Origin: Squalus acanthias
Lineage: Eukaryota
Length of the DNA: 64,000 bases
Assembly: GCA_030390025.1 (NCBI GenBank)
Contig: CM059432.1
Coordinates: forward strand, 43,960,001 to 44,024,000
Direction of reading: 5' to 3'
The notes beneath the pieces are model-generated. The model was given only the letters and a program-made list of their open reading frames with translations, searched no databases and was not told the origin of the DNA. The number at the start of each line of letters is the position of its first letter. Positions within the stretch are counted from its first letter, which is position 1. Shown here one piece after another: positions 9,244-56,495 of this stretch. Both the position numbers and the translations under genes were made by a program.

Positions 9244-10485
9244 GGACAAGCGTGGATTAATTAAGGAAAGCCAGCACGGATTTGTTCAAGGCAAATTGTG
9301 TTTAACCAACTTGATCGAGTTTTTTCATGAGGTAACAGAGAGGGTTGATGAGGGTAATGCGGTTGATGTGGAGTACATGGATTTCCAAAAGGCGTTCGAC
9401 AAAGTGTCACATAATAGGCTTGCCAGCAAAGTTGAAGCCCATGGAATAAAAGGGACAGTGGCATCATGGATACGAAATTGGCTAAGTGACAGGAAACAGA
9501 GAGTAGTGGTGAACGGTTGTTTTTCGGACTGGAGGAAGGTATACAGTGGTGTTCCCCAGGGGTCGGTTCTAGGACCACTGCTTTTCTTGATATATATTAA
9601 TGACTTGGACTTGGGTGTACAGGGCACAATTTCAAAATTTGCAGATGACACAAAACTTGGAAGTATAGTGAACAGTGAGGAGGATAGTGATAGACTTCAA
9701 GAGGACATAGTCAGGCTGGTGGAATGGGCGGACACGTGGCAAATGAAATTTAATGCAGAAAAGTGCAAAGTGATACATTTTGGTAGAAAGAATGAAGAGA
9801 AGAAATATAAACTAAAGGGTACAATCCTAAAGGGGGTGCATGAACAGAGAGACCTAGGGGTATATGTGCTGAAATCATTGAAGGTGGCAGGGCAGGTTAA
9901 GAAAGCAGTTAAAAAAGCATACGGGATCCTGGGCTTCATGATTAGAGGTATAGAGTACAAAAGTGTGGAAATGATGATGAACCTGTATAAAACACTGGTT
10001 CGGCCTCAACTGGAGTATTGTGTCCAATTCTGGGCACCGCACTTTAGGAAGGATGTGAAGGCCTTAGAGAGGGTGCAGAAAAGATTTACAAGAATGATTC
10101 CAGGAATGAGGGACTTGAGTTACGTGGATAGCCTGGAGAAGCTGGGGTTGTTCTCCTGAGAGCAGAGAAGATTGAGAGGAGATTTGATAGAGGTGTTCAA
10201 AATCATGAGGAGTCTGGACAGAGTAGACAGAGAGAAACTGTTCCCATTGGCAGAAGTGTCGAGAACCAGAGGACACAGATTTAAGGTGATTGGCGGAAGA
10301 ACCAAAGACAACATGAGGAAAAACTTTTTTACTCAGCGAGTGGTTAGGATCGGAATGCAAAAATTTGCAAGGCTACAAGGAAAGGGCAGGGGAGTGGGAC
10401 TAGCTCAAGTGCTCTTGCAGAGAGCCAGCATGGGCTCAACAGGCCGAATGGCCTTCTTCCATGCTGTAACCATTCTATGATTCTA
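9244..10485 (+). mobile_element. 5'-truncated CR1 LINE (RT domain and 3' UTR)
   Basis: QHGF...DFQKAFDKV...[13 protein letters not shown]...KFADD motifs, stop at 10157-10159, ATTCTATG-type tail. Confidence 0.95.
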
Positions 10486-18449: not shown

Positions 18450-20880
18450 ACATAGGATTACCTGGGATATACAGCACAGAAACAGACCATTCGGCCTAAC
18501 CAGTCCATGCCGGCGTTTATGCTCCACTCGAGCCTCCTCCCGTCTTTCCTCATCTAAATCTATTAGCATAACCCTCTATTCCCTTCTCCCTCATATGTTT
18601 GTCCAGCCTCCCCTTAAATGAATCTATATTATTCGCTTCAACCACTCCCTGTGGTAGCAAATTCCACATTCTCACCACTCTTTGGGTAAAGAAGTTTCTT
18701 CTGAATTCCCCATTGGTTTTCTTGGTGACTATCTTATATTGACGGCCTCTAGTTATGCTCGTCCCCACAAGTGGAAACATTCTCTCTGTATCCACTCTAT
18801 CAAAACCTTTCATAATTTTATAGACCTCTATTAGGTCACCCCTCAGCCTTCTTTTTTCAAGACAAAAGAGACCCAGCCTATTCATCCTTTCCTGATATGT
18901 ATATCCTCGCATTTCTGGTATCATCCTTGTAAATCTTCTCTGCACCCTCTCCAGTGCCTCTATATCCTTTTTATAATATGGTGAACTGAACTGCATGCAG
19001 TACTCTAAGTGTGGTCTAACCAAGGTTCGATGCAGGTTTAGCATAACTTCCCTACTTTTCAATTCAATTCCTCTAGAAATAAATCCTAGTGCTTGGTTTG
19101 CATTTTTAATGGCCTTGCTAACCTGTGGCGCAATTTTTAGTGATTTGTGTATTTGTACTCCGAGATCTCTTTGTTCCTCTACTCCACCTAGACTCGCACC
19201 CTCCAAGTGATAAGTAATCTCCTTATTCTTCCTACCAAAATGTAATACCTCACATTTGTCTGTGTTGAACTTCATTTGCCAATTATTTGCCCATTCTGCA
19301 AGTATATTAATGTACTCCTGTAATTTGTTGCAGTCCTCCTCAGTATTGACTACCCCCCTCAATTTGGTATCATCCGCAAATTTAGAAATTGTGTTTTTGA
19401 TTCCAGTCTAAATCGTTAATGTAAATTGTGAACAGCTGTGGTCCCAGCACTGATCCTTGTGGAACACCACTACCCACCTTCTGCCACTGTGTATAGCTAC
19501 CCTTTACTCCCATGCTCTGCTTTGTGTCTTGAAGCCAGCTAGCAATCCATTCTGCTACTTGTCCCCTGACTGCGCATTCTCTGACCTTATTCATTAGTCT
19601 ATTATGGGGTGCCTTATCGAAGGCCTTTTGAAAATCTAGATAAATTACATCTATTGCCTCTTCAAAAAATTCAATAAGGTTGGTCAAGCAAGATTTTCCC
19701 TTTAGAAATCCATACTGACTATTCATTATTATACTTTTCATTTCTGGATGTTCTTCTATTCTCTCCTTTAGTAGGGATTCCATTATTTTTACTACCACCG
19801 ATGTTAAGCTGACTGGTCTATAATTCCCTGGACATGTTCTATCCCCCTTCTTAAATATAGGTGTTACGTTAGCTATCCGCCAGTCCTCTGGCACTACATC
19901 TTTTTCTAACAAATTATTAAATATGTGTAGTAATGCCTCTGCTATCTCTTCCCTAGATTATTTTAAAATGCATGGATGCAATTCATCCAGACCTGGGGTT
20001 TTATCCTCTTTGAGTTTATTAGTTTATTTAATATATCCCCTTTTTTATTTTAAATGCACTTATCTAATTGCTCATCTCATCATCCAATGTCATGTCCACC
20101 TGTTCTATTTCCCTGGTAAATACCGAAGCGAAATAATGATTTAATATTTCTGCCATTTCCCTATCGTTACCTGTGGTATTGTCCTGTCCCTCCCTTAATG
20201 GCCCTATTCCCATCCCAACCTTCCTTTTTTTATTGATGTGCCTGTAAAATATTTTACTATTTTGTTTTATGTTCCTTGATAATTTAATTTCATAGTTCCT
20301 CTTTGACTTCCTAATTTTTTTTTACTTCTCTCCTAATCCCTTCGTATTTTCTCTTATCATGCACTCCTCTGCTGTCTATATACTTAATGTATGCCTCTTT
20401 CCTTACCCTCAATTGTTTCCTTATGTCTTTATTCATCCATGGAGTCTCATTAGTGTTTAGTTTGTTCTTTCCTTTTAGCGGAATATATTTTTCTTGCACT
20501 CTGTTGAAGACCATTTTAAATGTTTCCCATTGTCGTTCTACATCATTGTTTGCCAATATTGTTGCCCATTTTATCTTCCCAAGTTCTATTCTCAGCCCCT
20601 CAAAATCAGATTTTCTCCAATCTATTAACTTGGTTTTTGTTATTCTTATGTCCTTTGTTGTCATCTTAAAGCATATTATATTATGGTCACTATTGCCTAT
20701 ATGTTCCCCTACTTTTACTTCCCTTATCTGCTCTGGCTCATTCCCCATAACTAGATCCAATAGCGAATCCTCCCTTGTTGGGCTTTTTACATATTGGGTT
20801 AGAAAGGAGTCCTGTAGATATTGTAGGAACTCCATTCCCTTATCCCCTTTACTTACCTCTTCTGTCCAATTAATATCGGA
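18450..20880 (-). mobile_element. 5'-truncated CR1 LINE (APE C-terminus plus RT, frameshifted)
   Basis: ORFs 20311-20889 (SDH motif), 19382-19912 and 18550-19362 with CR1 ORF2 motifs. Confidence 0.95.
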
Positions 20881-22999: not shown

Positions 23000-23960
23000 C
23001 CTATGAAATAATGCACTGGACATCTCGGAATCCGGTAAATATTGCTCTCTCCATTCTGTCACCCAAAGCATGAATGCTACCAGTCAAGGCCTGTACACTG
23101 GAACAGACTGTTCTGTGCGACATAAGCAGAGATTCCTGCAACTGCCATTTGTTCATTGCTGCTCTGCATTATTGGGAATCCCTCTCTGATGTTGCTGCAA
23201 AGGATGATATTGGACTCTGCAACCAGCCTCGGCACCTGCTGTACATTTTCAGAGAGGTTTTGTAATGTCTTCATGGTCTGATGCTCTGCTAGCATCTTTT
23301 GTTTCATGCAGAACACTTGAGATCATTGTCCAAAAACTTTTCAGCTAAGGACTGATGCTTCCACACAGCAACATCCTTCTCCAGTTCCACTGCCTCTTCC
23401 TCTTGTTTCCTTCTATGTTGTGCAGCACTCAGTGTCCACACCTCATCTAAAATATCTATATCCTCAGGAGTGACTCTATCTGGGCTGGTGAGTGCAAGTA
23501 ATAGTGTGAATGACGGTGTGAGTGAATTTGAGCTGACTGTCCCTGCTGTTGAGGGCCCTACCATTGGATCAATGTCGCTCTCTGCCTCTTCGTTCTTGCT
23601 TCCACCTCCTGTGGAGAGAAAAAGACAGAGAAATTCAATGAGTTTCCTGCTATCCACTTTTTCCTTACTGTTCTGTTCATGTAAGGACCTCCTTAGAATA
23701 TGAGTCTCAGAAAACTGAAACCGCTTTTTGATATTTGAACATTAACACTTGGTCTGCACAAACCAACTGTGGGTGCAGGATCTCACATGACTCCTTCCCG
23801 TTGCCTCAACTGACTGAGATTCCAGTATCACAACTTCCTCCTCCACCTCCTGCTGCATTAATGGATGAATATCTGCCGTTCTTCTTCCCTGTAGTTTGTT
23901 GCTCCCATGAGCTGTAAGCAATTTTGTCCTGCATGAGAACAGAGTGCTTGTCACTTGTAA
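23000..23960 (-). pseudogene. Degraded Harbinger Myb/SANT-partner C-terminal exons
   Basis: AHGSNKLQGRRTADIHPLMQQEVEEEVVIL resembles the AHNxxExxxTGGG exon of the copy at 11.2 kb; coiled-coil-like tail. Confidence 0.45.
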
Positions 23961-24133: not shown

Positions 24134-24140
24134 GAATTTC

Positions 24141-25771
24141 TGTAGAATTCGCAATTATCGCGATTTCATTTTAATAAGGAGAAAACACAAAGTTTCGTTC
24201 AAAACAGCTTTTTATTTCAGCGGAATGCTGTCAGGTTTAAATTGGACACAAGCAGCCTGTAAAATGGCCGCCGCACCTCGTGACAGAACATTCTAGACTT
24301 TTCAACAGGCAGACAAGATGGCGTTCCAATAAACATTTTTTGCAGGGTCGATAAACGATTCAGCACAGTGAAGACAATACACAGGACATTATGGGTTTAC
24401 AGTATAAACATCGATACTGGAATCGGTCTCCCAGGTACAAAGGAAAGCCATCAAGGGCCCATCCAAAGGACATTAATATGCAAACTCCCAACGGCTCTAC
24501 GATGAGAGAGCCGTTAGCAGGTAGTTATACAGGACACTTGGAAGCCCCAAACCCCTCCAGGGGGAACACCGACCGATTTAACAATGGGAGAAATATTAAC
24601 AGGTACTCAAACATTCAGGAGTAGCCCCGAAACCCATTAAGGACAGAGATCACCCATACAGGACATTTTGGGCGCCAAACCGTTAAACAAAAGAATGGAC
24701 ATTGTAGTTGGGCGGGAAACGGAAGAACTGTGCACTATAATTGCAGGCCCAAACCGTCCATTCGCTCTCTTGCTCTTGGCTCTTGCCTCGTGTTCTTGAC
24801 TCTTGCCGCTTGTTGCTGTTATCATCGTGGCTGCTCCTGTGTTTTATCCGGTCGATTCGTAACCTCGTGGCTGCTCCTGTGTAAAAGACTGTTGCAAAGA
24901 CCTATGTTGGTAGCGGGCAGCGGAACCAAAGGCCCGAGATGAGATGAGATGAGAGGAGAAGAGAAGAAGACCTTATCCATCGCCACGGTCAGTAAATCCC
25001 GACTGCGCCTGTAGGTCGATCAGCCAAGTCTTCTCGACAGGAAGTTTTCTTCGTTAAACTTTTAACAAGACATATTGCATCAACGATAACTGGACTGTGC
25101 AAACACATCGTATCAGTGATATTGACAACGGTGCTCCACCATACCTTGTACCCAACCAACAGAGGTCTTCACTACAGCGGACGGTCCAGCCGACTGACCG
25201 AGCAGCAGAAGCAGTAAACAAGTGGGACCAGGAGATCTCCTGACCAACACGTGGGTGCTGCGGTGAAAAACATCCGATCTGCTATTCGGGATTTCTCCGA
25301 GTTATTACGAGTGGTGAGCATGAGTCTCGGGATCCTACGAAGCTAGTTTAGGATAGACATTGATAGGGGAGGGTTTAAAGATTAAGGATATTTGTAATGT
25401 GTGCCCTATTTACGTTGTGCTGGTCGTTCCTCGTTTCCCTAAGAGTGATTATAACTGTTTGTAAGATTGTACTGTCATTAATCTGTGCATATGACATGTA
25501 TTTCATAATTTTAAGTATCATGCAATAAAGATTTTCCATTTCGTACCGTTCAAACCAAGTCTACATGAGTTTTATCTCCATTACTGCTCTCGCATCTAAG
25601 TCCAGTGTCTAGAACCGTAAGGGAGAGTGATTCGAACCACTCACAGGGGTGTCTAGTGTTCCCAGACTGGCTGGAGACCAGGCCTAGACCCGCACTGACA
25701 TACAGGCTGCACAGAGCCGCGTGAATCTCACAGGCTACGAGACACGCAGGGTCAGGAGAGTATCCCTTACA
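24141..25771 (+). repeat. 5' LTR (1631 bp)
   Basis: Direct repeat of 31752-33400. YY1-like sites at 24261 and 24314, TATAAT at 24736, AATAAA at 25524. Confidence 0.97.
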
Positions 25772-25775
25772 GAAA

Positions 25776-27587
25776 ATGGCGACCGCGGCAGGACACTGGC
25801 AGCGAGAGGGTAGTGTGTTAGATTTTGGAATGACTGTACGAAATGTTATGCAGGAAAAGATAGCGGATTATGTGTTTGGAAAGGTTAATCTAACGAAAAA
25901 GTGGATAAGCGAATTGTTAGCGGATAAGAGCCCACTAGAGGCAGCTGAAAGGTGGACGGATAGTAAGGAGCATAAAAAGGCAGTTGAGAAAGCAGTCTGG
26001 CTTATGTGCTACAAAAGGCAGGTTCAGATTTCAAACCAGACCAATACAGCGCTAACCGCTCGAATCAAGCATCTAGAGGAGGAAATGGAGGAGAAGGTTT
26101 CTGGAGGGGAGGCGCTCATTAAGAGTTTAAATGAGTTACGCCAGGAAAGCCAGGAAGTCTCCAGTTACCTTAAAACAAGGGTAGAGTATCTCGAGTGCCA
26201 GATCACTGAAGCAAAATTAAACGAGAGTAGGATGAAGGAAAGATGTAACCGTCAAGCTGCCCAGATAAGAACTCAAGAAGAGAGCTTAATGGGGGTTAGG
26301 TCGGCGTATAAGTTGGCCCTTGAGGATAAGTTTCAGGGAGCCGACCATAGCGCCTGCGAAAAAGAGATAGAGAGCCTCAAAAAGGCCGTGAATAATGCGA
26401 ACGGCATGGTGTGCCTTATTAATCCGTCGGCACGCCAGCCGCTAGTAAATGAGAGATTTAGAAATTCCCCACCAAGTAAAGCAGAAGAAGTAGTAGCCAG
26501 TGCGCCCTCCGCGCCACCCAGCTATTCAGAAACCTGGGTTAGGGAGGAAGCAACGGAAGAAGCAAAAGAGCCCGTTGAAAAGGAGGTAGAAAAGGGATCG
26601 TTGTATCCAGTAACGGGGATTAAAAGGGGCCCAAGCAGAAACGGTGGGGAAGAACCGGGGGATCTCCTCGGACAGCTGGTGTTGCCTCACAGTTCACATC
26701 AGCTGAGGGCCATGATAAACCACGTAAGGAAGCTGACCGAGATAGACGACCCTTCCGTACATTTCAGGGAAGTTGAGCAAGCCGCAGCCATCAACGGCTG
26801 CGATGATGGGGAGACAGCAAAAATGCTGCTGTTCTCATTAGATAGCTCGGTCCTTCAGTGTCTCTCAGGCGATAGCAAGAGGGGTAATAAAAGTTATGAG
26901 GAATTGAAAAATGAGGTCCTAGAAGTAGTGGGAGCGAACGACGGAGGTCCGTTTGCTAGAGTGGGACAGACAGTGCAGATGGAGGGAGAACCCCCGAAGG
27001 TTTTTGCCGACAGGCTGTGGCCAGTATATGAGCGCAGCTGTCTAGGTGCGCCCGAGCGCGAAGATGTGGAAGGCGCCGCTTTAATTCATTGGCTTAGGTG
27101 CATCATAGCCAACAGTTTACCAGCCGTTAGAGAGCAGGCAAAAGCCTGGTTCGATCCCAATGACCTCAACCTTACGGAAGAGTCGGTCTTGAATCGACTC
27201 ACGTTAGGTTACCGTAACATAAGGGGTATGACGACACGTCCCTTTAAGGGAAGAGTACATGAGGTACGACCCGCAGCCCCGACTCAAAGAGAGTGGCATC
27301 AGGAGGGTAATCGCGCCCCACAGGCAAGTAATGCCTGTTACGGGTGTGGGAAGACAGGGCACTGGCGCAAGCACTGCAGGAACCCTTGGAAGGATTCCAA
27401 GGATAAAAATCCCGCGGTCCGAGCCCAGGCGCCTGTCCCGGCTAAGGAAGCCAAGGCACCCACCTCCCCCGACGACCTCGAAGCAGTGTTAGGAGCCATG
27501 CGCAAGATGGTTTTGAATGCGCGTGGACAGGTGGCGGTCGCAACCGGCCCCGTAGGTGCCGCAGGACCGTCTAATAGTGCCCCATGA
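25776..27587 (+). CDS. gag: Gag-like polyprotein, 603 aa
   Basis: N-terminal coiled coil, PSAPPSY late motifs (26505-26525), helical capsid-like middle region, CCHC knuckle CYGCGKTGHWRKHC (27336-27377); no disabling mutation. Confidence 0.9.
   Translation: MATAAGHWQREGSVLDFGMTVRNVMQEKIADYVFGKVNLTKKWISELLADKSPLEAAERWTDSKEHKKAVEKAVWLMCYKRQVQISNQTNTALTARIKHLEEEMEEKVSGGEALIKSLNELRQESQEVSSYLKTRVEYLECQITEAKLNESRMKERCNRQAAQIRTQEESLMGVRSAYKLALEDKFQGADHSACEKEIESLKKAVNNANGMVCLINPSARQPLVNERFRNSPPSKAEEVVASAPSAPPSYSETWVREEATEEAKEPVEKEVEKGSLYPVTGIKRGPSRNGGEEPGDLLGQLVLPHSSHQLRAMINHVRKLTEIDDPSVHFREVEQAAAINGCDDGETAKMLLFSLDSSVLQCLSGDSKRGNKSYEELKNEVLEVVGANDGGPFARVGQTVQMEGEPPKVFADRLWPVYERSCLGAPEREDVEGAALIHWLRCIIANSLPAVREQAKAWFDPNDLNLTEESVLNRLTLGYRNIRGMTTRPFKGRVHEVRPAAPTQREWHQEGNRAPQASNACYGCGKTGHWRKHCRNPWKDSKDKNPAVRAQAPVPAKEAKAPTSPDDLEAVLGAMRKMVLNARGQVAVATGPVGAAGPSNSAP
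25777..25794 (+). promoter_or_regulatory. Primer-binding site complementary to the 3' end of tRNA-Arg(UCG)
   Basis: TGGCGACCGCGGCAGGAC is the reverse complement of ...GTCCTGCCGCGGTCG-CCA, the 3' end of vertebrate tRNA-Arg-TCG as I recall it; a 5-nt spacer separates it from the LTR. Confidence 0.85.
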
Positions 27588-28709
27588 CTAGAGCCCACGC
27601 AGCCTGCCTACCTGTGTCCTTTTAAAAGACACGCACAGAAGGGGGTCTGCGGTGAGGAGGCCAGGTTAAAAGAGCAGGCCTTGCGGGAGGAGAACGCCCG
27701 CTTAATAGGGAAAATAGATGGGCTGGAAGGGCAGCTTAGAGAGCAGACCCTGCGGGAGGAGAACGCCCGATCAATGGGAAAGTTAGACGTGCTCAGGCTA
27801 GAAGCGCAGCTTAGTGAGATAAAAGCAGCCTACAGGGTAGCCAGGAGCAGGGAGTATGAGGATTTAAAACAGGATAGAAATCTGCAGCCTCCAGCAGGTG
27901 AGATTTCACAGAAACAAGCAGGGGCGGTGGCCTGTCTTAAGGGAGGGGCCAGACCTGCGAGTGGGGAAGCACAGCCCCAGGTAGGACCACAAGGCACACA
28001 GGCAGGCATAGCAGCTTGCATCAGGGGAAGGGACATCCCGGACGATCATGCAGCGTTTTTCTGGAGTTGGGGGTTAGATGACGAGGACCCCAGGGTACCC
28101 TGGTCAGATGAGGATAGTGCAGATGAGCATAGTGATGATGACGGGTGGTTTCTGAGGAACGGTCTGGGAGGATTGGGGCCGCTAGGTAGAGATCCATACG
28201 GGGTGGACACACAAGCTGCAGGTCCCGACAGCAGGAGGAAGGAGCTAGAGGAGGCCGGGCCAGCCGCTATGTGGTTCCCAGAGGTGTGGCCGCCCGCTTT
28301 GAACGTCCAGTCCTCAGGGGAGGCAGAGTTCACGAGTGAAGGGCCGCCTGCTGGGCCGAGCAGGGCGGGGCCCCGAACTGCCAGCCCCGAGGTAAGGGAG
28401 GCGGAGTCAGCGGAGGCGGGGCTGGCGCCTGTGATGGAACCCCAGGTCATCCCGTTGAAGGTCTCGGGACCCGGTCCGTCCGTCACGGAGCCCCCGCCCA
28501 TAGCAATTCCCCGTAGGTCAAGCAGAGTACCCCAGCCCAGGAAGATGTGGTCAGGTCCACAGGCTGCCCCAGGGCGTAAGTTTCAGGTTAAGATAACCCG
28601 GGTAGAGACAGGCCACATCGAAGCAGTAACAGGCTGCGGCAGATCAGAGGGAAGGGTCAGTGCCCTCCCACCGTCGGGAAGAGCTCGCAGCAGCCTTCTC
28701 AGGATTTAA
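27588..28709 (+). CDS. In-frame post-Gag ORF (373 sense codons), probably expressed by UGA readthrough; not Pol
   Basis: Same frame as gag, open from the codon after TGA (27585-27587) to TAA at 28707-28709. TGA-CTAG context; no D(T/S)G, YxDD or HHCC/DDE motifs. Confidence 0.7.
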   Translation, partial: LEPTQPAYLCPFKRHAQKGVCGEEARLKEQALREENARLIGKIDGLEGQLREQTLREENARSMGKLDVLRLEAQLSEIKAAYRVARSREYEDLKQDRNLQPPAGEISQKQAGAVACLKGGARPASGEAQPQVGPQGTQAGIAACIRGRDIPDDHAAFFWSWGLDDEDPRVPWSDEDSADEHSDDDGWFLRNGLGGLGPLGRDPYGVDTQAAGPDSRRKELEEAGPAAMWFPEVWPPALNVQSSGEAEFTSEGPPAGPSRAGPRTASPEVREAESAEAGLAPVMEPQVIPLKVSGPGPSVTEPPPIAIPRRSSRVPQPRKMWSGPQAAPGRKFQVKITRVETGHIEAVTGCGRSEGRVSALPPSGRARSSLLRI

Positions 28710-28973
28710 AGGGGCCGCCCTGAGAACGGGCGGCATTGTAAAGTTATTAGTTTAAGGTTTTAAGTAGTTTTAATAAGGTTAAGTTTGTAGTGTTTTTAAC
28801 AGATGACGACATAATGATGGGAGTTTTAAGGCTAGGTTTAGAGGAAGTCTATTTAGCAAACGTTGAAGTTTACGTGAGGCGAGGTCAGGGGACCCGCTCA
28901 CCCTTCACAAAAGCCAGAGACTTTTTGCGAGGCTGGCTACCTCATTCTATCTGATCACAGGAACCAAGGAAGG

Positions 28974-31325
28974 ATGGAACGACTTCTAGTTTTGCTCGTG
29001 GCAATCGGATGTGGATTGGCCTATCGGGGCCTCACCAAGGATGTCGTGGTGTTTGGATGTTCCGGGGACACGGCCCCCATCGCGGTGGATGGGACCGGAA
29101 GACGGAAGGCAGAAGGGACCAGCACCTATTTCCACAAGGGAAGGTGGCCAGGATGGCTGGGAACGAACTCAACGGAGTATTCCAGCACATCGGGGTTCGC
29201 CTATAAAGAGACTTCTTTAATGTGCCCCAAAGTACGGATCATCGCACCCAGGATCAGCGTCACCGTCGGCAAACGGATTTGTTTGACCTGCAGTGGGAAT
29301 GTCCCATTGAGCCGATGGTGGTGGCTGCGAAAGCTGAGCAAAACTATGAGGAACTCTTCGGTTGAGTGGGAGCGACTGGGTAATAATACCCATCGGACAA
29401 TTACGGGGACAGATGGACAAGTGAAAGTCTGTTGGGACAAATGGTGGGAACCGGATGAGGGGATTTATGTTTGTATGTGGGGGTCAAAGTACGTTTGCCC
29501 CAAAGGCATCTCCATATTCTTTATTAACCAGTGGCAGGATAACGGACAGGGGATGAGGTGGGATGCGAGCACCAGGGGGTGCGGAGCCCCATACTCTCCG
29601 ATCCCAGTAAATGCCACTGAGCTCATTACGCGCCCACGCAAAGCCCCGCCCACGATTCCGGTGGTTGTAACTGAGGAAGAAGGGTGCCCTAAAACTAGTA
29701 AGGGACCCGGGAACGGTTTGGTACTGGTCCCCACAGACCAGATACTATTTCAGGGGGTACATTACGCGGTGGCCTCGGTGATTTTAAATCTCACTGAGGT
29801 ACGGTTACCAGAGTGGTGCCCCAAAAAGACGGAACAGTTGTACCAGGTCCTGTTGACCAAGATGTTCAGGCAATTTTACGAGTTTGATTTTGCAGAAATT
29901 GATAAGACAAGTTTATACACCGCACCGCAGGAAGCTTTGGATCAAGTAGGGAGGCAAAGAAGGGGTTTGGTGAACGATGCGTTCACTGCTTTTAACACAG
30001 GGACATCTGTGGTCAACGCTCTAGACAGTGTGGAGCTGCAGACCCAGATTAATGGTTTAAAAACACAGTTAAAGGATATTCTTACAGATGAGAATAAAGT
30101 GGTAGGGTCGGGTCTGCACGAGGACCAAGCCATGACACTACACTTAAAGGAAATCATAGCAGAGCTGGAGAAACATGCGCGTACGGTAAATGCCCTGATT
30201 AGGGAAGATCGGAATGCATCCGATCAGGCGGCGCAGAACGAGGTGTGCGTGCTTTACGGGGCGTGGTTACTGGGCGAGGGCCGCAGTAATTTGGAGGATT
30301 TAAAACAAGGTTTGGTCCCGTCCTGGATAAGTAACAAACACCTGCGGGCGCTCCACCCTTTTCAGAATGCATTAAGTCCGTGCCAGCTCAGGCTAGCTTC
30401 AGAAGCTTACCCAGTCCCCGTGGACTGCGGACGTTCAAACCATACTATTATGGGAATAGTATTACGCATGCCGGTTTTGGGCAACACAGCAAAGCCCGCC
30501 CCGGTGTATCGGGTAGAGAACATTGGTGTCATTCAGGGGGGAGCCCACATTCGTTATGCAGCGGTTCCACCTTACGTCATCCGCTGGGAGCAAACGATGA
30601 CAGGTACAGATCTCTCTGGTTGTCGTGGCAGGGGAGCACACATAATACTGTGCCCCCAGCACTTGAATGCCTTTTTAACACCACAGTGCGGGTTCAGAAC
30701 GGCTGGCGCCAAGTCCATGAATTGCACCATGGAGGCAATGGCACAAGATCATGTGCCTCCGCAGGTAGCATACATCGGGGGTGGAACATATTGTGTTACC
30801 ACTGCAGCGCAACACTACCAGCATGGAAACCGTAGCCGGTGTCCGGTGAGTGACAGCAGTTTCTGTTTTAAACCCAGGGCTGAAGTTCAAGTAGCACAAC
30901 AGCGAATTATCCCAATCCCTGAACCATCCACTGTTCATCTCACAGTAAAAGAGAATTTTACCGACTTGCAGCGATTTGTCGCACATTTTGGGTACCTCAT
31001 TCCCCCTCTCCCCGAGCATTTAACCAAACTTCTGAAAGCCGTCGCGGTGTCACAAAAGCATTTCTATACATTAGAACAGAAAACCGTCGAGATAGGTACA
31101 GACATTTTGGACATAGTGGTTCCACCGTGGTGGAATCTGTTCACGAATATTGAAGTGCCCTCATGGGTCAGAATAGCCTCCCACATTTTAGTCGTCTGTC
31201 AAGTGTTTATTGTAGTATACCTTTTGTTCATACATTGTAAAAGAGACAAGCGCCTCACCAAGCATGAGAACACGGGAGAGTGGCGAGAACGTTACGTGCG
31301 CGTGCACGATGAGAGCGCAGTGTAA
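28974..31325 (+). CDS. env: Envelope glycoprotein, 783 aa: signal peptide, Ig-like domain, furin site, F-type class I fusion ectodomain, TM anchor
   Basis: MERLLVLLVAIGCGLA signal; C..W..DEGIYVC; RQRR|GLVNDAFTAF (29952-29963); heptad repeat; Cys-rich region; TM IASHILVVCQVFIVVYLLFI; about nine N-glycosylation sequons. Confidence 0.92.
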   Translation: MERLLVLLVAIGCGLAYRGLTKDVVVFGCSGDTAPIAVDGTGRRKAEGTSTYFHKGRWPGWLGTNSTEYSSTSGFAYKETSLMCPKVRIIAPRISVTVGKRICLTCSGNVPLSRWWWLRKLSKTMRNSSVEWERLGNNTHRTITGTDGQVKVCWDKWWEPDEGIYVCMWGSKYVCPKGISIFFINQWQDNGQGMRWDASTRGCGAPYSPIPVNATELITRPRKAPPTIPVVVTEEEGCPKTSKGPGNGLVLVPTDQILFQGVHYAVASVILNLTEVRLPEWCPKKTEQLYQVLLTKMFRQFYEFDFAEIDKTSLYTAPQEALDQVGRQRRGLVNDAFTAFNTGTSVVNALDSVELQTQINGLKTQLKDILTDENKVVGSGLHEDQAMTLHLKEIIAELEKHARTVNALIREDRNASDQAAQNEVCVLYGAWLLGEGRSNLEDLKQGLVPSWISNKHLRALHPFQNALSPCQLRLASEAYPVPVDCGRSNHTIMGIVLRMPVLGNTAKPAPVYRVENIGVIQGGAHIRYAAVPPYVIRWEQTMTGTDLSGCRGRGAHIILCPQHLNAFLTPQCGFRTAGAKSMNCTMEAMAQDHVPPQVAYIGGGTYCVTTAAQHYQHGNRSRCPVSDSSFCFKPRAEVQVAQQRIIPIPEPSTVHLTVKENFTDLQRFVAHFGYLIPPLPEHLTKLLKAVAVSQKHFYTLEQKTVEIGTDILDIVVPPWWNLFTNIEVPSWVRIASHILVVCQVFIVVYLLFIHCKRDKRLTKHENTGEWRERYVRVHDESAV

Positions 31326-31742
31326 TGGGAAAATGGCGTCACTCCCGCTCGCCACGTGCGCCGCGGAAGTTTGTACTCATTGTAAATACGTTGGAAACTC
31401 GACATGTTTAAGAGTTGGGATTTGTTTATTTTGGTGATGGTGTTGATTGTTTGGTTTTTGGGTTTTGTTTTTCCTTCCCTTGAATAAAAGACAAATATAC
31501 AGGTGATGCGTGAGGTATCGGCCTGGTTACGCCGGAAAGGAAAACAAGTGGTGTAAGTTTAAGGGCAAATGATGCCTACGGTGATATAAAATGTGATTTT
31601 CTTGGGAAATAAGGACGACACAGAGACCCTAGTCAAGTTAAAATTTATGGGATTAATTTACTGGATTCGGAGTGAAATCGAGATAAGATTGCTCACCACT
31701 GAGATTTTTTTTGATACGATAAGCGGAGTTATTCGCATCAAC

Positions 31743-31751
31743 AGGAGGGAC
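31743..31751 (+). promoter_or_regulatory. Short polypurine tract
   Basis: AGGAGGGA(C) immediately before the TG of the 3' LTR. Confidence 0.7.
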
Positions 31752-33400
31752 TGTAGAATTCGCAATTATCGCGATTTCATTTTAATAAGGAGAAAACACA
31801 AAGTTTCGTTCAAAACAGCTTTTATTTCAGCGGAATGCTGTCAGGTTTAAATTGGACACAAGCAGCCTGTAAAATGGCCGCCGCACCTCGTGACAGAACA
31901 TTCTAGACTTTTCAACAGGCAGACAAGATGGCGTTCCAATAAACATTTTTGCAGGATCGATAAACGATTCAGCACAGTGAAGACAATACACAGGACATTA
32001 TGGGTTTACAGTATAAACATCGATACTGGAATCGGTCTCCCAGGTACAAAGGAAAGCCATCAAGGGCCCATCCAAAGGACATTAATATGTAAACTCCCAA
32101 CGGCTCTACGATGAGAGAGCCGTTAGCAGGTAGTTATACAGGACACTTGGAAGCCCCAAACCCCTCCAGGGGGGAACACCGACCGATTTAACAATGGGAG
32201 AAATATTAACAGGTACTCAAACATTCAGGAGTAGCCCCGAAACCCATTAAGGACAGAGATCACCCATACAGGACATTTCGGGCGCCAAACCGTTAAACAA
32301 AAGAATGGACATTGTAGTTGGGCGGGAAACGGAAGAACTGTGCACTATAATTGCAGGCCCCAAACCGTCCATTCGCTCTCTTGATTCTCTCTGGCCTCTT
32401 GCTCTTGGCTCTTGCCTCGTGTTCTTGACTCTTGCCGCTTGTTGCTGTTATCATCGTGGCTGCTCCTGTGTTTTATCCGGTCGATTCGTAACCTCGTGGC
32501 TGCTCCTGTGTAAAAGACTGTTGCAAAGACCTATGTTGGTAGCGGGCAGCGGAACCAAAGGCCCGAGATGAGATGAGATGAGAGGAGAAGAGAAGAAGAC
32601 CTTATCCATCGCCACGGTCAGTAAATCCCGACCGCGCCTGTAGGTCGATCAGCCAAGTCTTCTCGACAGGAAGTTTTCTTCGTTAAACTTTTAACAAGAC
32701 ATATTGCATCAACGATAACTGGACTGTGCAAACACATCGTATCAGTGATATTGACAACGGTGCTCCACCATACCTTGTACCCAACCAACAGAGGTCTTCA
32801 CTACAGCGGACGGTCCAGCCGACTGACCGAGCAGCAGAAGCAGTAAACAAGTGGGACCAGGAGATCTCCTGACCAACACGTGGGTGCTGCGGTGAAAAAC
32901 ATCCGATCAGCTATTCGGGATTTCTCCGAGTTATTACGAGTGGTGAGCATGAGTCTCGGGATCCTACGAAGCTAGTTTAGGACAGACATTGATAGGGGAG
33001 GGTTTAAAGTTTAAGGATATTTGTAATGTGTGCCCTATTTACGTTGTGCTGGTCGTTCCTCGTTTCCCTAAGAGTGATTATAACTGTTTGTAAGATTGTA
33101 CTGTCATTAATCTGTGCATATGACATGTATTTCATAATTTTAAGTATCATGCAATAAAGATTTTCCATTTCGTACCGTTCAAACCAAGTCTACATGAGTT
33201 TTATCTCCATTACTGCTCTCGCATCTAAGTCCAGTGTCTAGAACCGTAAGGGAGAGTGATTCGAACCACTCACAGGGGTGTCTAGTGTTCCCAGACTGGC
33301 TGGAGACCAGGCCTAGACCCGCACTGACATACAGGCTGCACAGAGCCGCGTGAATCTCACAGGCTACGAGACACGCAGGGTCAGGAGAGCATCCCTTACA
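31752..33400 (+). repeat. 3' LTR (1649 bp)
   Basis: By eye, about 8 substitutions, four 1-bp indels and one 18-bp indel relative to the 5' LTR; AATAAA at 33153. Confidence 0.97.
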
Positions 33401-34343
33401 TTTCAATTTAATTGTTCCATGTGAACGAGTCTATGCAGTTCATTCCTGCATTGTGGCTCTGTTTTAAATTCTACAGCTGTACCCTCACAATGACTTTCTC
33501 TACCCCCGCCCCAGACACAGCACATCAATTGCTCGTGGAACTCGCACATTTGTCCTGCCCAATAATACTAAATTTAGCTCACCCCATGATTTCTGGCGGA
33601 GTCAGCATTGGGATAATTGGGTGGGTGGAAGTCCCGCCCCACTGCATTTCCAGCAGCAGTTCACAGGACTGAGAATTTCAAGGCCTGTGCTTTTAGTCAA
33701 GGTTTGTATTTTTCAGGTTCTGTTTCTATGGATGTAGTAGTGACAAATGTCGTAAAAAATAAATCTGGACAAAGCAACAATTTCACACAAATAAGAACAT
33801 CTTCAACACCTGTACTCAGTTGGAATGTTGGTTTTGATATTATTATAAGTTTTAGATGCGCATTACTACAGGGCCAATTCCATGCTCCTAGTGGGGAGCG
33901 GCACATGGAGGGAGCACATCATGGTTGCACAGTCCATGGTTTTCGGTCTATTAATTTTAATAGGTGGACAATCACAGCCTGTGCACTCACAATGTACTGG
34001 CTCCCCAGTGGGTGCACAGATTCAGCTCTTGTATCAACCACTCGTGTAATACTAAGACAGAATTTTATCACTGCTATGCTCAAGAGAAGTGACAGTCTGT
34101 AGGACTTAAAATCATTAAAGTTCCTAAATTGAGATGTACCAGTTACATCACATCTGTTATGCAAATTGGAGGCATTAATTTAGTTCAACAACAAAATCGA
34201 AAAGTTTAAAGAAATTAGGAGATAAGGTTCATAGTTGATTGTCTCAGCGAATAAAGGTTAAAAGTTTAAGCACAATAGAAATTGATGAACGATTTAACGC
34301 ATCGTAATACTAATACAGATTATGTTGAAAGAATAGCACTGAC

Positions 34344-40492: not shown

Positions 40493-42435
40493 GTAACACA
40501 CAGCTGTAAGAAGATCTAAACATTCTAATTACTAACTATTTACAAACCGCAGGTGATAATTAGAGCTTTCAAAATACAACTCATTTGTTTTTGTTTGAAA
40601 AAATGAAGTCAAATCATTAGGAAAGATACCAGGGAGAACTTTCAACTTCAGCAGGAGTGGAAAACTTGTGGTATCGATCAACTCCCCATTATACATCCCG
40701 GTCGATTTTCCTTTCCATTGACTTACTTAAGAACATAACATAAGAAATAGGAGCAGGAGTAGGCCATTTGGCCCTTCGAGCCTACTCCACCATTCAATAA
40801 GATCTTGGTTGTTCTTCTACCTCAACTCCACTTTCCTGAACTATCCCCATATCCCTTGATTCCCTTAATATTCAAAAATCTATCGATCTCTGTCTTGAAT
40901 ATACTCAACGACTAAGCCTCCACAGCCCTCTGGGGTAGAGAATTCCAAAGATTCACCACCCTCTGAGTGAAGAAATTTCTCCTCATCTCAGTCCGAAATG
41001 GCCGACCCCTTATTCTGAGACTGTGACCCCTGGTTCTAGACTCCCCAGCCAGGGGAAACATCCTCCCTGCATCTACCCTGTCAAGCCCTGTAAGAATTTT
41101 GTATGTTTGAATGAGATCACCTCTCATTCTTCTAAACTCCAGAGAATATAGGCCTAGTCTACTCAATCTCTCCTCAAAGGACAATACCCCCATCCCAGGA
41201 ACCAGTCTGGTGAACCTTCGTTGCACTCCCTCTATGGCAAGTATATCCTTCCTTAGGTAAGGAGACCAAAACTGCACACAATACTCCAGGTGTGGTCTCA
41301 CCAGGGCCCTATATAATTGCATTAAGACGTCTTTACTCTTATACTCAAATCCACTTGTAATAAAGGCCAACATACCATTTGCTTTCCTAATTGCTTGCTG
41401 TACCTGCAGGTTAACTTTCAGTGATTTGTGTACAAGGACACCCAGGTCCCTCTGAACACCAACATTTCCCAATCTCTCACCATTTAAAAAATGCTCTGCT
41501 TTTCTATTTTTCCTACCAAAGTGGATAACTTCACATTTCTCCACATTATATTCCATTTGCCATGTTCTTGCCCACTCACTTAGCCTGTCTATATCCCCTT
41601 GAAGCCTTCGTGCATCCTCCTCACAAGTTACATTCCCACCCAGCTTTGTATCATTAGCAAACTTGGATATATTACATTTGGTCCCCTCATCCAAATCATT
41701 GATGTAGATTGTGAATAGCTGAGGCCCAAGCACTGATCCTTGCGGTACCCCACTTGTTACAGCCTGCCAACCCGAAAATGACCCATTTATTCCTAATCTC
41801 TATTTTCTGTCTGTTAACCAATCCTCAATCCATGCTAGTATATTACTCCCAATCCCATGAGCCCTAATTTTGTTTCATAACCTCTTGTGTGGCACCTTAT
41901 CGAATGCCTTCCGAAAATCCAAATACACCACATCCACTGGTTCCCCCTCATCTATTCTGCTTGTTACAACCTCAAAAATCAGATTTGTCAAACACGATTT
42001 CCCTTTCATAAATCCGTGCTGACTGCCCAATCCTATTATTATTTTCTAAGCATCCTTAATAATAGATTCTAGCATTTGTCCTACTACTGATGTCAGGCTA
42101 ACTGGTCTGTAGTTCCCCATTTTCTCTCTGCCTCCTTTCATAAATAGTGGGGCTACATTTGCTACCTTCCAATCCTTGGGGAATGTTCTAGAATCTAGGG
42201 AATTCTGGAAGATTAATATCAGTGCATCCACTATCTCTATAGCCACCTCTTTCAAAACCCTAGGATGTAGGCCATCAGGTCCAGGCGATTTATCGACTTT
42301 CAGTCCCATTAATTTCTCCAGTACTATTTTTTTACTAATACTAATTTCTTTGAGATCCTCATTCTTGCTAGACCCTTGGTTCTCCACTATTTCCGTGAAG
42401 TTTTTTGCGTCTTCTTCCGTGAAGACAGACACAAA

Positions 42436-43081
42436 GGGCTGGATTTTGATACTGGGGCGGGTTGGGGTCATGTTATCCACTTTTCGTGTTATCCACCCGA
42501 CTGCAATTGGATGTGGGAGATTGATGCGATTTTCACCTAATTGGGCAATTGAGTTCCAGCATGTGGGAACCCATGACCCAATTAGTGTTTTCAGTCTGAA
42601 AGTCGCCTCTGATGATGTCATCATTGCTGCTGCCTTCAAGGTCTGCAAAGACTGCCTGGCCTTTGCTGTGAGAGGACCTGGAGGCAAAATGAGCAGCAGC
42701 AGCCCTAAGTCTGCTCCCAGATATTTTACTGCTGCCGCCGCCGTCGTAATAGTGAACCTGCAGCTGATAGTCAGCTATCCAAATGTGCTCCCGCCAGGTT
42801 TCACATTCGTGGTTCAGAACAGGCGGCTTCACGTAGAAAAAGGGTTAAAATCACAAAGGCGTTTCAAAATGGCATTAGAGGCAATTTAGTGCTTGTTAAG
42901 GGCCTTAATAGCCTATCCTGCCTCTTAGAGGCGGGACAGAGTCGGGACCAGCAGACACGATTTAATGAAAATTGCATGGAGGCGGGATGGAGGCGGGCTT
43001 GTGCCCGCCTGCCAGTTTTCGCAATTTTAACCCCCCACACGCCTCCAAACCCACCTAAACGGGTCAATGAAAATTCTGCCC
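42436..43081. mobile_element. Harbinger-type non-autonomous element inserted in CR1 ORF2
   Basis: TIRs GGGCTGGATTTT / AAAATTCTGCCC with a 3-bp AAA TSD; removing it restores the CR1 sequence gacacaaagtatttg. Confidence 0.88.
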
Positions 43082-44330
43082 AAAGTATTTGTTTAATTTC
43101 TCTACCATTTCCTTATTCCCCATTATAATTTCTCCTGTCTCAGCCTGTAAGGGACCCACATTTACTTTCACTAATCTTTTCCTTTTTACATACATATAGA
43201 AGCTTTTACAATCTGTTTTTATGTCTCTCGATAGTTTACTCTCATATTCTATTTTCCCTTTCTTTATCAATTTCTTGGTCCTCCTTTGCTGAATTCTAAA
43301 ATCCTCCCAATCCTCAGGCTTACTACTCTTTTTGGCAACATGATAAGCCTCTTCCTTTGATCTAATACTATCTTTAACTTCTCTTGTTAGCCACGGTTGG
43401 ACCACTTTCCTGTGGGGTTTTTGTGCCTTAAAGGAATGTATATTTGTTGTAAATTATTAATTATTAATTCTTTAAATGCTAGCCATTGCTTCTTTACCAT
43501 CATACCTTATAATGTAGTTTCCCAATCTATCAGCCAACTCGCCCCTCATACCTACGTAGTTTACTTTGTTTAGATTTAAGACCCTAGTTTCAGATTTAAC
43601 TAAATCACTTTCAAACTCATTATAAAATTCTATCATATTATGGTCACTCTTCCCTAAAGGCCCCTTTACTGCAAGGTTATTAATTAACCCTTTCTCTTTG
43701 CACAATACTAGATCTCAAATAGACTGTTCCCTAGTTGGCTCCTCAACATACTGATCTAGAAAACTATCTTGCATACTTTCCATGAATTTGTCCACCACAC
43801 TATTACTGGAAATTTGGTTTGCCTAGTCTATATGTAGATTAAAGTCCCCCATGATTACTGTATTACCCTTGTTACATGCGTTGCTAATTACCTGATTTAT
43901 ACCCTGCCTACATTACAACTACTGTTTGGGGGCTAAAAACAACACCCACCAATGTTTTCTGCCCCTTGCTGTTTCTTAGCTGATTCTACTTTTTGATTTT
44001 CCGAGCTAAGATCCTTTCTCTTTACTGTCTTTATCCCATGCTTTATTATCAGGGCTACCCCTCCTCCTTTTCCATTTTGCCTATCTCTTCTAAAAGTGAA
44101 GTATCCTGGAATATTTAGTTCCCAACCTTGGCCACTTTGCAACCACGTCTCCGTTATGGCTATTAGATCAAACCTGTTCATTTCTATCTGCGCTATTAAT
44201 TCATCTATTTTGTTGCGAATGCTTCACGCATTCAGATATAGTGCCTTTAGCTTTGACTTATTTCTATTTTTCCCTGATGTCACCTTAGTCACTGATGCCT
44301 TATTACCTTTTTTACTCTCTCTGTACCTTA

Positions 44331-44790
44331 CTGTCAGCTGTGGCTCAATAGGTAGCACACTCGCCTCCGAGTCAGAAGGTTGTGGGTTCAAGTCCCACTC
44401 CAGGGACTTGAGCACATAAAGCTAGGCTGACACTCCAGTGCAGTGCTGAGGGAGTGCTGCACTGTCGGAGGTGCTGTCTTTCGGATGAGATGTTAAACCG
44501 AAGCCCCATCTGCTCTCTCAGGTGGACGTAAAAGATCCCATGGCACTACTTCGAAGAAGAGCAGGTGAGTTATCCCCGGTGTCCTGGCCAATATTTACCC
44601 CTCAACCAACATAACAAAAACAGATTATCTGGTCATTATCACATTGCTGTTTGTGGGACCTTGCTGTGTGCAAATTAGCTGCCGCGTTTCCCACATTACA
44701 ACAGTGACTTCACTTCATTGGCTGTAAAGCGCTTTGAGACGTTCTGGTGATCGTGAAAGGCGCTATATAAATGCTTTCTTTTTTCTTTTT
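44331..44790 (+). mobile_element. Full-length Deu-core tRNA SINE inserted in CR1
   Basis: A box tggctcaatagg, B box ggttcaagtccc, Deu core, T-rich tail. Confidence 0.92.
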
Positions 44791-47525
44791 CCTGACCCAC
44801 TCTGCTTATTTTTACCCAAAACTCTACTCTGCTCTTGACATTTCTCTCGTTGCTTTTAAATTTACTCTTTCCTGAATCCTCCCACCCGCTTCTTCGTTAG
44901 TTTACAGCCCTGTCTACTGCCCACTTATTCGATTCGCCAGGACACCAGTCCCAGCCCCGGTTTAAGTGGAGCCCGTTCCAACGGAACAGCTCCCTCTTTC
45001 CCCAGTACTGGTGCCAGTGCCCCATGAACTGAAACCCCTTCCTCCCACACTACTCTTTGAGCCACGCATTTAAACCTCTAATCTGTTTGTCCCTATGCCA
45101 ATTTGCGTGTGGTTCAGGTAACAATCTTGAGATTATTACCTTTGAGGTTCTGCCTTTTAATTTGGATTCTAGCTCCTCAAACTCCCTCAGCTGAACCTCA
45201 TTCCTAGTTCTCCCTATGTCGTTGGTTCCTACGTGGACCACGACAACTGGATCTTCCTCCTCCCACTCCAAGTTCTTCTCCAGCCGGGAGGCAACACAAC
45301 TTTCGGAACTCTCGATCGCAGCTGCAGAGAACAGTATCTATCCCCCTGACGATACTGTCCCCTACCACAACTACATTCCCTTTCACTCCCCCCACCTCTT
45401 GCACCGTGGTGCCATGGTCTTCTTGCTCATCCATCTTGCAGGCTTTTCCCTCATCCACACAGGCAGCAAGAACCTCATACCTGTTGGACAAGGGTAAAGG
45501 CTGAGGCTCCTCCAGCACTGCACCTTGCGTCCCTTTACCTGCCTGAGTTGCAGTCACACCCTCCTGTCCCAGACCTGTACCACTACCTAACCTAAGGGGT
45601 GTGACTGCCTCTGGATCAAAGTGTCAAGGTAACTCTCCCCATCCCTGACGCCCCGCAATGTCTGCACCTCAGACTCCAGCTCAAAAACTCTGAGCTGAAG
45701 TTCCTCAAGATGCAGGCACTTACTGCAAATGTGGTTGTCTGGGATCACAATGCTCTCCACAAACTCCCACATGCTGCAGTTGAGGCACACCACCTGCACT
45801 GCCATCCCTATATGACCTTGTTATATTTAATTAAATTTAATTAAATTTGTAATGAGGTAACTTAGTTTGCAGTGTAGTTTCTTGACTACTTACTTGATCT
45901 AGCTTAAGTTAAGGGTACTGAAATTAAATATCTACCTGTAACACAAAGCACTACAAGTAGTGTAGGCAAAAAGCAGCAACTCCTTCCCCCCTCTTCTCCA
46001 AATTCCCACTCTTTCCAAATTCCCAAATAAAACACACTGTTCAAGTCCACTTCGTTTAATCCCGATCTGTGCAGACCGCCTTGCTGCTTGTCTAGCCAGG
46101 TCAATCCTTTCCATTATGGCACTGATTTGCAGAGATACCTGAAGCCAATTGGGCAGTGACAGGTGTATCCATTCAGGTTCCATTAGTGAGCCAGTCTATC
46201 TAGTCAATTTTCAACAGTGCCCTGGAGTACTTCAGACGTTTCTAGTTCAGGTATTGAATTACTAAGTTTGCCACAGAAGCTTTACTTGATTCCTAATTTC
46301 CACTCCCAAGCAAGTCATCTTGGAGTCACTTTGACCCATATACCCCCACCCCCCCACCACCCCAAGGAGGATAGCGATTTGTTGGTGTGAGAAATTAATT
46401 TAGTGCCTTTTTCCGACATGGTTTGGGAAAATAGCTAAGTTGGAGAACAAAGGCTGCTGGGTTTGTTCATGGCTAAAAAACTGCTGGTACAGCAGTTCGA
46501 AACTGTCAACCCAGCAGCTTACACAAGAAGATAGGGATGTCTGATGTGTTATTAGTTCAAGGTCTGCTCTTTGTACATCTTGTGACTGCCAGGCTTGTGG
46601 TTGTAAGGATCCATACCTCCAGACCCAGTAAAATGGTACTGAAGTAAGATTGAGGTGGGGGGGGTGGGAGGGTGAGTAATTGTGCAAAACATACATTAAA
46701 ACCCAATGTAAGGACAGCTAAGGACCCCAGTCAGGCAGAGAACTTGCGGCGATTCATGACAACAGAACCAAGGGATACTGACAAACTAAGTGAGTGGGCA
46801 AGAACATGGCAAATGGAATATAACGTGGAGAAATGTGAAGTTATCCACTTTGGTAGGAAAAATAGAAAAGCAGAGTATTTTTTAAATGGTGAGAGATTGG
46901 GAAATGTTGGTGTTCAGAGGGACCTGGGTGTCCTTGTACACGAATCACTGAAAGTTAACATGCAGGTACAGCAAGCAATTAGGAAAGCAAATGGTATGTT
47001 GGCCTTTATTACAAGAGGATTTGAGTATAAGAGTAAAGACGTCTTATTGCAATTATATAGGGCCCTGGTGAGACCACACCTGGAGTATTGTGTACAGTTT
47101 TGGTCTCCTTACCTAAGGAAGGATATACTTGCCATAGAGGGAGTGCAACGAAGGTTCACCAGACTGGTTCCTGGGATGGGGGGATTGACCTATGAGGAGA
47201 GATTGAGTAGACTAGGCCTATATTCCCTAGAGTTTAGAAGAATGAGAGGTGATCTAATTGAAACATATAAAATTCTTAAGGGGCTTGACAGGGTTAATGC
47301 TGAGAAAATGTTTCCCCTGGTTGGGGAATCTAGAACGTGGGGTCACAGTCTCAGAATAAGGGGTCGGCCATTTAGGACTGAGATGAGGAGAAATTTCTTC
47401 ACTCAGAGTGGTGAATCTTTGGAATTCTGTACCCCAGAGGGCTGTGGAGGCTCAGTCGTTGAGTATATTCAAGATAGAGAGCGATAGATTTTTGAATATT
47501 AAGGAAATCAAGGGATATGGGGAAT

Positions 47526-56254: not shown

Positions 56255-56495
56255 TATAAATGCAAGTTATTTCTCTCTATCTGTATATAATGGGGTAGAA
56301 TTTCCATCAGAGTTGTCCCAGTTGTCTGATGTAACTTCAGTGGAAGATCCACGAAAACCGGCGTTCACGTCATTTCTCTGGGGTTTCCACAGATCTTCCA
56401 CTGAGGTTACGGCTGATGATCATGAGAATCTCTGTTGAAATGGCATTTATATACAAAATCAATACACTGGAAAATGCTCTATCATAAGAACTTAC

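Follow-up and report, generated by a model that had tools for sequence, protein, structure and literature searches.

Defective forms of endogenous retroviruses (ERVs) normally shed env and most other genes, and retroviral recombination occurs between co-packaged genomes. The mouse element IAP 1Δ1 is mobilised in trans by full elements, and its fusion protein is reported to act in cis (PMC6466679). Recombination through co-packaging has been shown for the C and D types of a cattle ERV, and MusD/ETn and KoRV/recKoRV are listed as comparable pairs (PMC10924933). In cartilaginous fishes, clade Huo is known from the elephant shark (PMC4422223, PMC6001957). Here we describe a provirus spanning positions 24141-33400, on the + strand, of a 64,000-nucleotide stretch of the Squalus acanthias genome (contig CM059432.1, positions 43,960,001 to 44,024,000; hereafter "the window"). 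The provirus exhibits gag, env and an intervening open reading frame (ORF2), and no pol. We consider it, with a probability of about 0.8, to be a variant, non-autonomous for want of pol, of an enveloped ERV family with recent activity, borne by helpers of the same family and recombining with pol-bearing copies.

The first-pass annotation of this sequence had described a provirus without enzymes, and its anatomy holds: long terminal repeats (LTRs), a target-site duplication, a primer-binding site (PBS), a polypurine tract (PPT) and three open frames are present (Table 1), and Pfam finds no enzyme domain. Protease, reverse transcriptase (RT), ribonuclease H (RNase H) and integrase all lack a Pfam match in the gag, ORF2 and env frames, where no other Pfam domain reaches significance either. 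These three frames are uninterrupted in the window copy, and the longest of the remaining element frames of 90 or more codons has 178 codons. Over 1,627 aligned columns, the two LTRs exhibit 8 substitutions (0.49%), besides one indel of 18 nt and four internal ones of 1 nt. All of the nearest named homologues come from cartilaginous fishes, in keeping with the shark-like genome first supposed: skate (Gag 51%, Env 79% identity), sawshark (Env pieces, 63-65%), catshark and horn shark. Two sawshark gene models, Niban1-like and cadherin-related 5-like, start with related Env pieces; they are probably annotation chimeras with intronic proviruses.

A pol-bearing relative sharing LTR and PBS, for which a search had been proposed, is present in the same genome and belongs to the same family. 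A pattern combining the pol-type start with the protease motif gives 2,011 matches, versus none for the window-type (pol-less) junction combined with the same motif. All ten stretches with a pol-type junction that were read belong to the window's own family, their Gag being 64-98% and their Env 81-99% identical to those of the window; the closest pol-bearing copies reach 98% in Gag and 99% in Env. An unbroken pol frame of about 1,500 codons is found in six of the ten, and a pol-bearing copy exhibits protease, RT, two RNase H and integrase domains. Some of the 1,983 pol-type copies counted below carry internal deletions. LTR, PBS and PPT are common to the pol-less and pol-bearing forms. Longer Gag-Pol fusions were absent from the protein collection searched, which is weak evidence. 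Two further ERV families of the genome are also young and high in copy number. In one, pol has 1,187 codons and no env frame was seen; in the other, pol has 1,185 codons and env is of gamma type (TLV_coat, E-value = 1e-16). Their RTs are 43-48% identical to that of the present family. The two commonest integrase-bearing families, with pol of these lengths, were rejected as helpers, exhibiting no DNA or Gag match and an RT identity of 43-45%. A sister ERV lineage, described below, was dropped as a candidate helper after the same-family pol form had been found.

Comparison with the pol-bearing copies reveals the origin of ORF2. Window positions 24141-27619 and those from 27954 onward align to these copies, the segment 27620-27953 is absent there, and the left deletion breakpoint lies at 27619 against every pol-bearing copy aligned. 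ORF2 thus consists of 11 pol codons, a filler and a 250-residue tail from beyond the integrase. The frame that had been taken for a different one occupying the pol slot is therefore, for about 70% of its length, made of the beginning and the tail of this family's pol. The first 75 or so codons of the filler form a gag-like coiled-coil cassette with an internal repeat. This cassette resembles the coiled coil in the sister lineage's Gag (E-value about 1e-4; 37 nt at 81-86%), and the filler ends with a short piece like the pol tail of that lineage. The cassette is present in each of the 25 open ORF2s aligned, which run into the integrase end through no fewer than four distinct in-frame joins. ORF2 exhibits no similarity to the window's own Gag, and its best score in the ESM Atlas (0.80) is uninformative. 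In 20 unselected copies, ORF2 is open to its normal end in 17 and the readthrough context of the gag stop is kept in 18; the frame is maintained across many indels. The ratio of nonsynonymous to synonymous substitution rates (dN/dS) of the pol tail is about 0.92-0.96 in the pol-less and 0.84 in the pol-bearing form. ORF2 is a frame kept open with unconstrained residues.

Both forms were counted with matched 35-place junction patterns, of which the reversed controls gave 0 matches. The genome contains 836 pol-less and 1,983 pol-type junctions, the pol-less form making up about 30% of some 2,800 junction-bearing copies, and 830 copies contain one and the same 34-nt junction without a mismatch. 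With ORF2 as query, a DNA search returned 3,387 candidates; the 40 that were scored are all 92-100% identical. We examined 49 pol-less copies: 20 chosen by ORF2 similarity, nine junction variants, and 20 spaced along the first 100 junction matches listed. The first 20 are biased to young copies, and integrity and dN/dS were redone on the 20 spaced ones. All 49 lack pol and contain ORF2. Four-bp duplications, with differing flanks, are found in 23 of the 25 copies in which both LTR ends were located. In these 25 copies, mostly from the young set, the median divergence of the LTR pair is 0.06% and the maximum 0.31%. The copy in the window, with 0.49%, predates all of them; its age would be about 11 million years at the rate of PMC4422223 and about 2.5 million at 1e-9. 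The annotation had proposed a young, multi-copy and helper-dependent element, and the 836 pol-less copies, the low LTR divergence and the 1,983 pol-type junctions in the same genome agree with it on all three counts. Pol-less copies also occur in tandem: two share an LTR with the next copy, and junction matches are spaced 7.7-7.8 kb apart at 143.66 Mb and 204.99 Mb of one contig. Nested insertions of pol-less copies were seen in the gag of a pol-bearing relative, in the junction of another copy and in the pol region of an unrelated element. Contigs from four sequencing runs cover 30 of 30 bins of the stretch, which is contained in 14 runs from five organisms. Single contigs bridge the gag stop and the cassette in two runs of two organisms, although contigs cannot show expression. 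No splice joint was seen in the contigs of the four runs, and no RNA run with the stretch is on record.

Selection was compared between 20 pol-less copies not chosen by similarity and 16 pol-bearing copies. The dN/dS values of the two forms are nearly the same: 0.27 and 0.26 for gag, 0.18 and 0.14 for env residues 1-240, and 0.07 and 0.06 for env residues 241-520 (pol-less and pol-bearing, respectively). Both genes are under purifying selection in both forms. Of the outcomes that the annotation had named as telling against its reading, the internal deletion is what we find; a single copy and a dN/dS near 1 are contradicted by the 836 copies and by values far below 1 in gag and env. Synonymous divergence (dS) is 0.085 in the cassette versus 0.28 in gag, the cassette being the less diverged. 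Phylogenetic trees were built from rows covered to at least 90%, and the greater part of the near-identical first set was left out. The gag tree (47 rows) exhibits 13 changes of label between pol-less and pol-bearing, versus a mean of 13.8 for shuffled labels, and the pol-tail tree (48 rows) 11 changes versus 13.2. Both trees are ladder-shaped, with the two forms alternating, and the starred branches of the gag tree force at least 12 changes of form. The cassette has a single origin yet the forms are interleaved; therefore, recombination has occurred between them. The element, for which a separate lineage had been preferred to a deletion mutant, derives by internal deletion of pol from a commoner pol-bearing form of its family and is inseparable from that form on the trees.

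The sister ERV lineage of the same genome has a Gag 41-43% identical to that of the present family, and its pol begins with 11 similar codons. The PBS, the TGTA...ACA ends of the LTRs and, where readable, the 4-bp duplications are common features. This lineage is older and has more stops. In 20 stretches, pol is present in four; nine exhibit an in-frame ORF of pol remnants together with env, one a partial pol deletion with env, and six are without pol and retain little or no env. The deletion ORF is made of different pol pieces, so that an env-keeping pol-less design would have arisen at least twice.

The Env sequence exhibits an RQRR cleavage site (residues 327-330), a cysteine-rich ectodomain of about 410 residues and a transmembrane segment at about 730-755. 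Neither a CX6CC nor an immunosuppressive motif was found in it. The nearest ESM Atlas clusters of residues 240-770 are gypsy Env, Baculo_F and Fusion_gly/paramyxovirus F (0.93-0.95; 203-209 of 256 features in common). Env has no Pfam match to F (PF00523) and no PDB chain match by sequence, foamy virus Env included. It looks F-like by layout and embedding, the layout agreeing with the F-like Env first proposed. Since the Env of foamy viruses is also F-like (PMC11468914), Env alone is no pointer to lokiretroviruses. Residues 88-167 (window 29235-29475) may form an immunoglobulin (Ig)-like head, with a weak Ig match (E-value = 0.1; 0.016 in the sister lineage), and are a possible receptor-binding domain.

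The annotation had further suggested lokiretrovirus or Ty3/gypsy ancestry. The RT of the helper exhibits the motifs LPQG and LDISNGFWSI, as in snakehead retrovirus; the Loki rows available from the Wang & Han supplement have CPFG. Counted by hand, it is identical to snakehead retrovirus at 109 of 237 positions (about 46%) and to Loki-Sri at 82 of 237. Over the first 139 positions the counts are 70 for snakehead retrovirus, 53 for feline foamy virus and 49 for Loki-Sri. The two RNase H domains of a pol-bearing copy (RT_RNaseH, E-value = 5e-18; RNase_H, E-value = 2e-19) are common to all retroviruses and hence not diagnostic. The gypsy-type traits, a single RNase H and usually a PFG motif, are not those of the helper, with its two RNase H domains and LPQG. 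The best PDB match of its integrase is that of foamy virus, and no RT relative appeared in two viral-contig scans. The RT counts and the retroviral LPQG motif argue against a Loki or gypsy ancestry, snakehead retrovirus being the closest of the references counted, and are suggestive of a position near snakehead retrovirus (clade Huo, class III). The statement of the annotation that lokiretroviruses were not originally reported from cartilaginous fish agrees with Wang & Han (PMC7947760), who report none from the chondrichthyan genomes that they screened: none of the six such genomes found in their Table S2 carries the asterisk that we take to mark Loki-positive genomes. The literature searched, with Repbase/Dfam and most subscription papers outside the search, yielded no description of this family or of its layout.

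These results suggest the following course of events. In a single replacement event, the protease, RT, RNase H and integrase regions were lost and a short gag-like coiled-coil cassette was set in frame between the pol start and the pol tail. The deleted RNA retains the LTRs, PBS, PPT, gag and env. It may then be packaged into particles with Gag-Pol made by pol-bearing copies in the same cell, the helper enzymes carrying out reverse transcription and integration; we infer the latter step because LTR ends, PBS and 4-bp duplications are shared. Co-packaged genomes would recombine, as the tree pattern indicates, so that the cassette keeps moving onto the current gag/env backbone and the right junction is remade several times. 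Gag and env may be kept intact partly by this recombinational refresh from helpers, and probably also by an advantage to a deleted RNA that translates its own Gag and exits in an enveloped particle. ORF2 is probably made only as a readthrough extension of Gag, of which the open frame would matter and the residues would not.

Several points weigh against this explanation. Mobilisation in trans is read from sequence, not from RNA or particles. The low dN/dS is not assignable to the pol-less form as such, given that the two forms draw on a common gene pool, and the dN/dS of the cassette, 0.67 (interval 0.37-1.32), indicates no significant amino-acid constraint. After insertion the genes decay normally: of the unselected copies, 12 of 20 have a gag open to its start and 9 of 18 a full-length env. 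The gag and env lesions of the 49 pol-less copies, counted as stops and out-of-frame deletions without insertions, are private in 29 cases; the four shared ones are all parts of compensated indels. With no disabling lesion shared, broken copies seem not to found new bursts, a hint of a need in cis, but helper-driven renewal could yield the same lesion picture. The placement of the RT is a hand count against three references and not a tree, and the structure predictions for Env are of low confidence (predicted local distance difference test scores of 35 and 31), with no F-like fold obtained.

The most serious competitor, which we regard as a real possibility although one falling short of even chances, is that the pol-less form is a pure passenger, a defective parasite of the ordinary kind with no need of its own gag and env, which look selected only because each burst consists of fresh recombinants with helpers. 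Equal dN/dS in both forms, their interleaving on the trees, a cassette dS (0.085) below that of gag (0.28), as if the cassette had moved between backbones, the 830 copies with one exact 34-nt junction and the existence of env-less pol-less copies in the sister lineage would all be expected from such a passenger. It fits less well with the absence of an amplified gag- or env-broken subgroup among the 49 pol-less copies, with the private variants of the 21 closest copies, which are still biased to synonymous changes (0.11 in env, 0.22 in gag), and with the ORF2 frame kept across many indels.

A bolder proposal, which we consider doubtful, is a stable population of two retroviral forms, in which selection maintains the pol-less one through its own Gag, its F-like Env and a cis-acting readthrough coiled-coil fusion. 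The element would then be an enveloped cell-to-cell satellite of a snakehead-retrovirus-like helper, with the same design arising separately in the sister lineage and with an Env (Ig-like head, F-type core) undescribed for the clade.

Readthrough is known from murine leukaemia virus to shield RNA from nonsense-mediated decay. This bears on a division of labour, which we hold to be unlikely, where the pol-less form supplies extra Gag and Env and its readthrough coiled-coil product aids co-assembly with the helper Gag-Pol in a stable two-form population. Such a population would account for a pol-less share of about 30% of junction copies across the whole diversity of the family, for the kept cassette (readthrough context 18/20, frame 17/20) and for the sister lineage having its own in-frame pol-deleted, env-bearing forms, and a fusion working in cis has been reported in IAP 1Δ1 (PMC6466679). 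However, the helpers encode their own Gag and Env and need nothing, no amino-acid constraint is shown on the cassette or tail, and the open frame could merely protect the RNA from decay.

It is very improbable that the element represents a gag+env lineage of its own, descended from lokiretroviruses or env-bearing Ty3/gypsy elements and holding a new gene where pol would be: the embedding neighbours of Env 240-770 (gypsy Env, baculovirus F, paramyxovirus F), the dual RNase H of the helper, as in lokiretroviruses, and the roughly 75 ORF2 codons absent from the helper would suit it, but the element is interleaved with helpers on the trees, ORF2 is mostly pol, the RT motifs and hand count (109/237 vs 82/237) favour snakehead retrovirus over Loki, dual RNase H occurs in all retroviruses and the foamy-virus Env is F-like as well (PMC11468914).

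The features of the element and of the surrounding window are given in Table 1. The PBS-like sequence, also present in pol-bearing copies and in the sister lineage, resembles a serine-tRNA PBS. The TGA-CTA-G at the gag stop is presumably the readthrough context of other viruses. The provirus is apparently intronic and antisense in a leucine-rich repeat (LRR) host gene, about 225 nt from a splice acceptor.

Table 1. Features of the pol-less provirus and its surroundings, in window coordinates
Feature	Position	Strand	Remarks
Target-site duplication, left copy	24137-24140	+	TTTC, 4 bp; same 4 bases after 3' LTR
5' LTR	24141-25771	+	TGTAG...CCTTACA; 1.63 kb
TATA-like motif (candidate)	24736	+	in 5' LTR
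AATAAA (candidate)	25524	+	in 5' LTR
PBS-like sequence	25777-25794	+	TGGCGACCGCGGCAGGAC; overlaps gag ATG
gag	25776-27587	+	603 aa; coiled coil at the N-terminus; capsid region assigned by position; CCHC zinc knuckle (aa 521)
gag stop TGA-CTA-G	27585-27591	+	common to pol-bearing copies, where pol follows in frame
ORF2	27588-28709	+	373 codons; gag frame, directly after TGA-CTA-G
ORF2 part 1, first 11 pol codons	27588-27619	+	by alignment to pol-bearing copies
ORF2 part 2, filler	27620-27953	+	not in pol-bearing copies examined
ORF2 part 3, C-terminal pol tail	27954-28709	+	non-enzymatic, past the integrase SH3-like region; in frame
Candidate splice acceptor	28943-28960	+	pyrimidine run, CAG; 13 nt upstream of env ATG; splicing would follow from the motif
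env	28974-31325	+	783 aa; uninterrupted
PPT	31742-31751	+	precedes 3' LTR
3' LTR	31752-33400	+	
Target-site duplication, right copy	33401-33404	+	TTTC
LRR host-gene exons	23440-23612, ~23787-23915, 56495-56694	-	LRR_8, E-value = 2e-9; one gene assumed
21-bp tandem array	7306-9000		long; reads as 519-codon repetitive ORF; probably minisatellite
Inverted repeat	55964-56216		126 bp, near-perfect, 1-nt spacer; from head-to-head short-repeat copies
Long interspersed element fragments	9377-10159, 18550-20835, 40912-52222 and others		many; presumably CR1/L2-type, from RT-like translations

A pol-less form that retains gag and env under selection, at about 30% beside some 2,000 helpers with a ladder-shaped history, lets sequence alone test needs in cis versus trans and the speed of recombination between co-packaged genomes. 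The family suggests that F-like envelopes extend past foamy viruses and lokiretroviruses to snakehead-retrovirus-like elements. It also suggests that shark genomes can harbour ERV families of very large size and recent activity.

Foamy viruses are not known to have a CCHC knuckle or in-frame gag-pol readthrough, in both of which the present element differs from them. As canonical retroviruses with an F-like fusion protein (PMC11468914, PMC12390576), they are nonetheless comparable to it. The snakehead retrovirus-like ERVs, with CmiERV lineage I (PMC6001957, PMC4977317, PMC4422223), share the RT motifs, the presence in cartilaginous fish, the gag-pol-env order and the dual RNase H; the CmiERV elements described from the elephant shark are few and old, whereas the present family has about 2,800 junction copies, many with identical LTRs. 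Lokiretroviruses (PMC7947760) have an Env of similar, F-like layout, with a cleavage site, a fusion peptide, a coiled coil and a transmembrane segment, as well as a dual RNase H, and differ in their RT motifs and in an smc gene not found here, the coiled coil of the present element being gag-like. Zebrafish BHIKHARI (bioRxiv 2024.03.25.586437) is likewise pol-less, recently active and partner-dependent with a coiled-coil Gag. It is, however, Loki-related, has Gag only and no env, and has no autonomous partner in the reference genome as reported there, whereas here the helper is abundant. Mouse IAP 1Δ1 (PMC6466679) arose in the same way: an active ERV lost an internal segment in frame, which left a fusion of Gag with a Pol remnant; part of its gag is lost and env is absent, in contrast to the whole gag, the intact and selected env, the readthrough-dependent fusion and the gap filled by a foreign cassette seen here. 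In the cattle ERVK[2-1-LTR] C and D types (PMC10924933), competent and defective forms likewise belong to one clade, with a central segment swapped for other retroelement sequence, co-packaging, recombination in the flanks and tight linkage beside the boundary. The D types make up 85% of those elements and lack any intact gene, whereas the defective form here makes up about 30% and has full gag and env. The keeping of a whole and selected gag and env is what sets this element apart from IAP 1Δ1 and the cattle D types.

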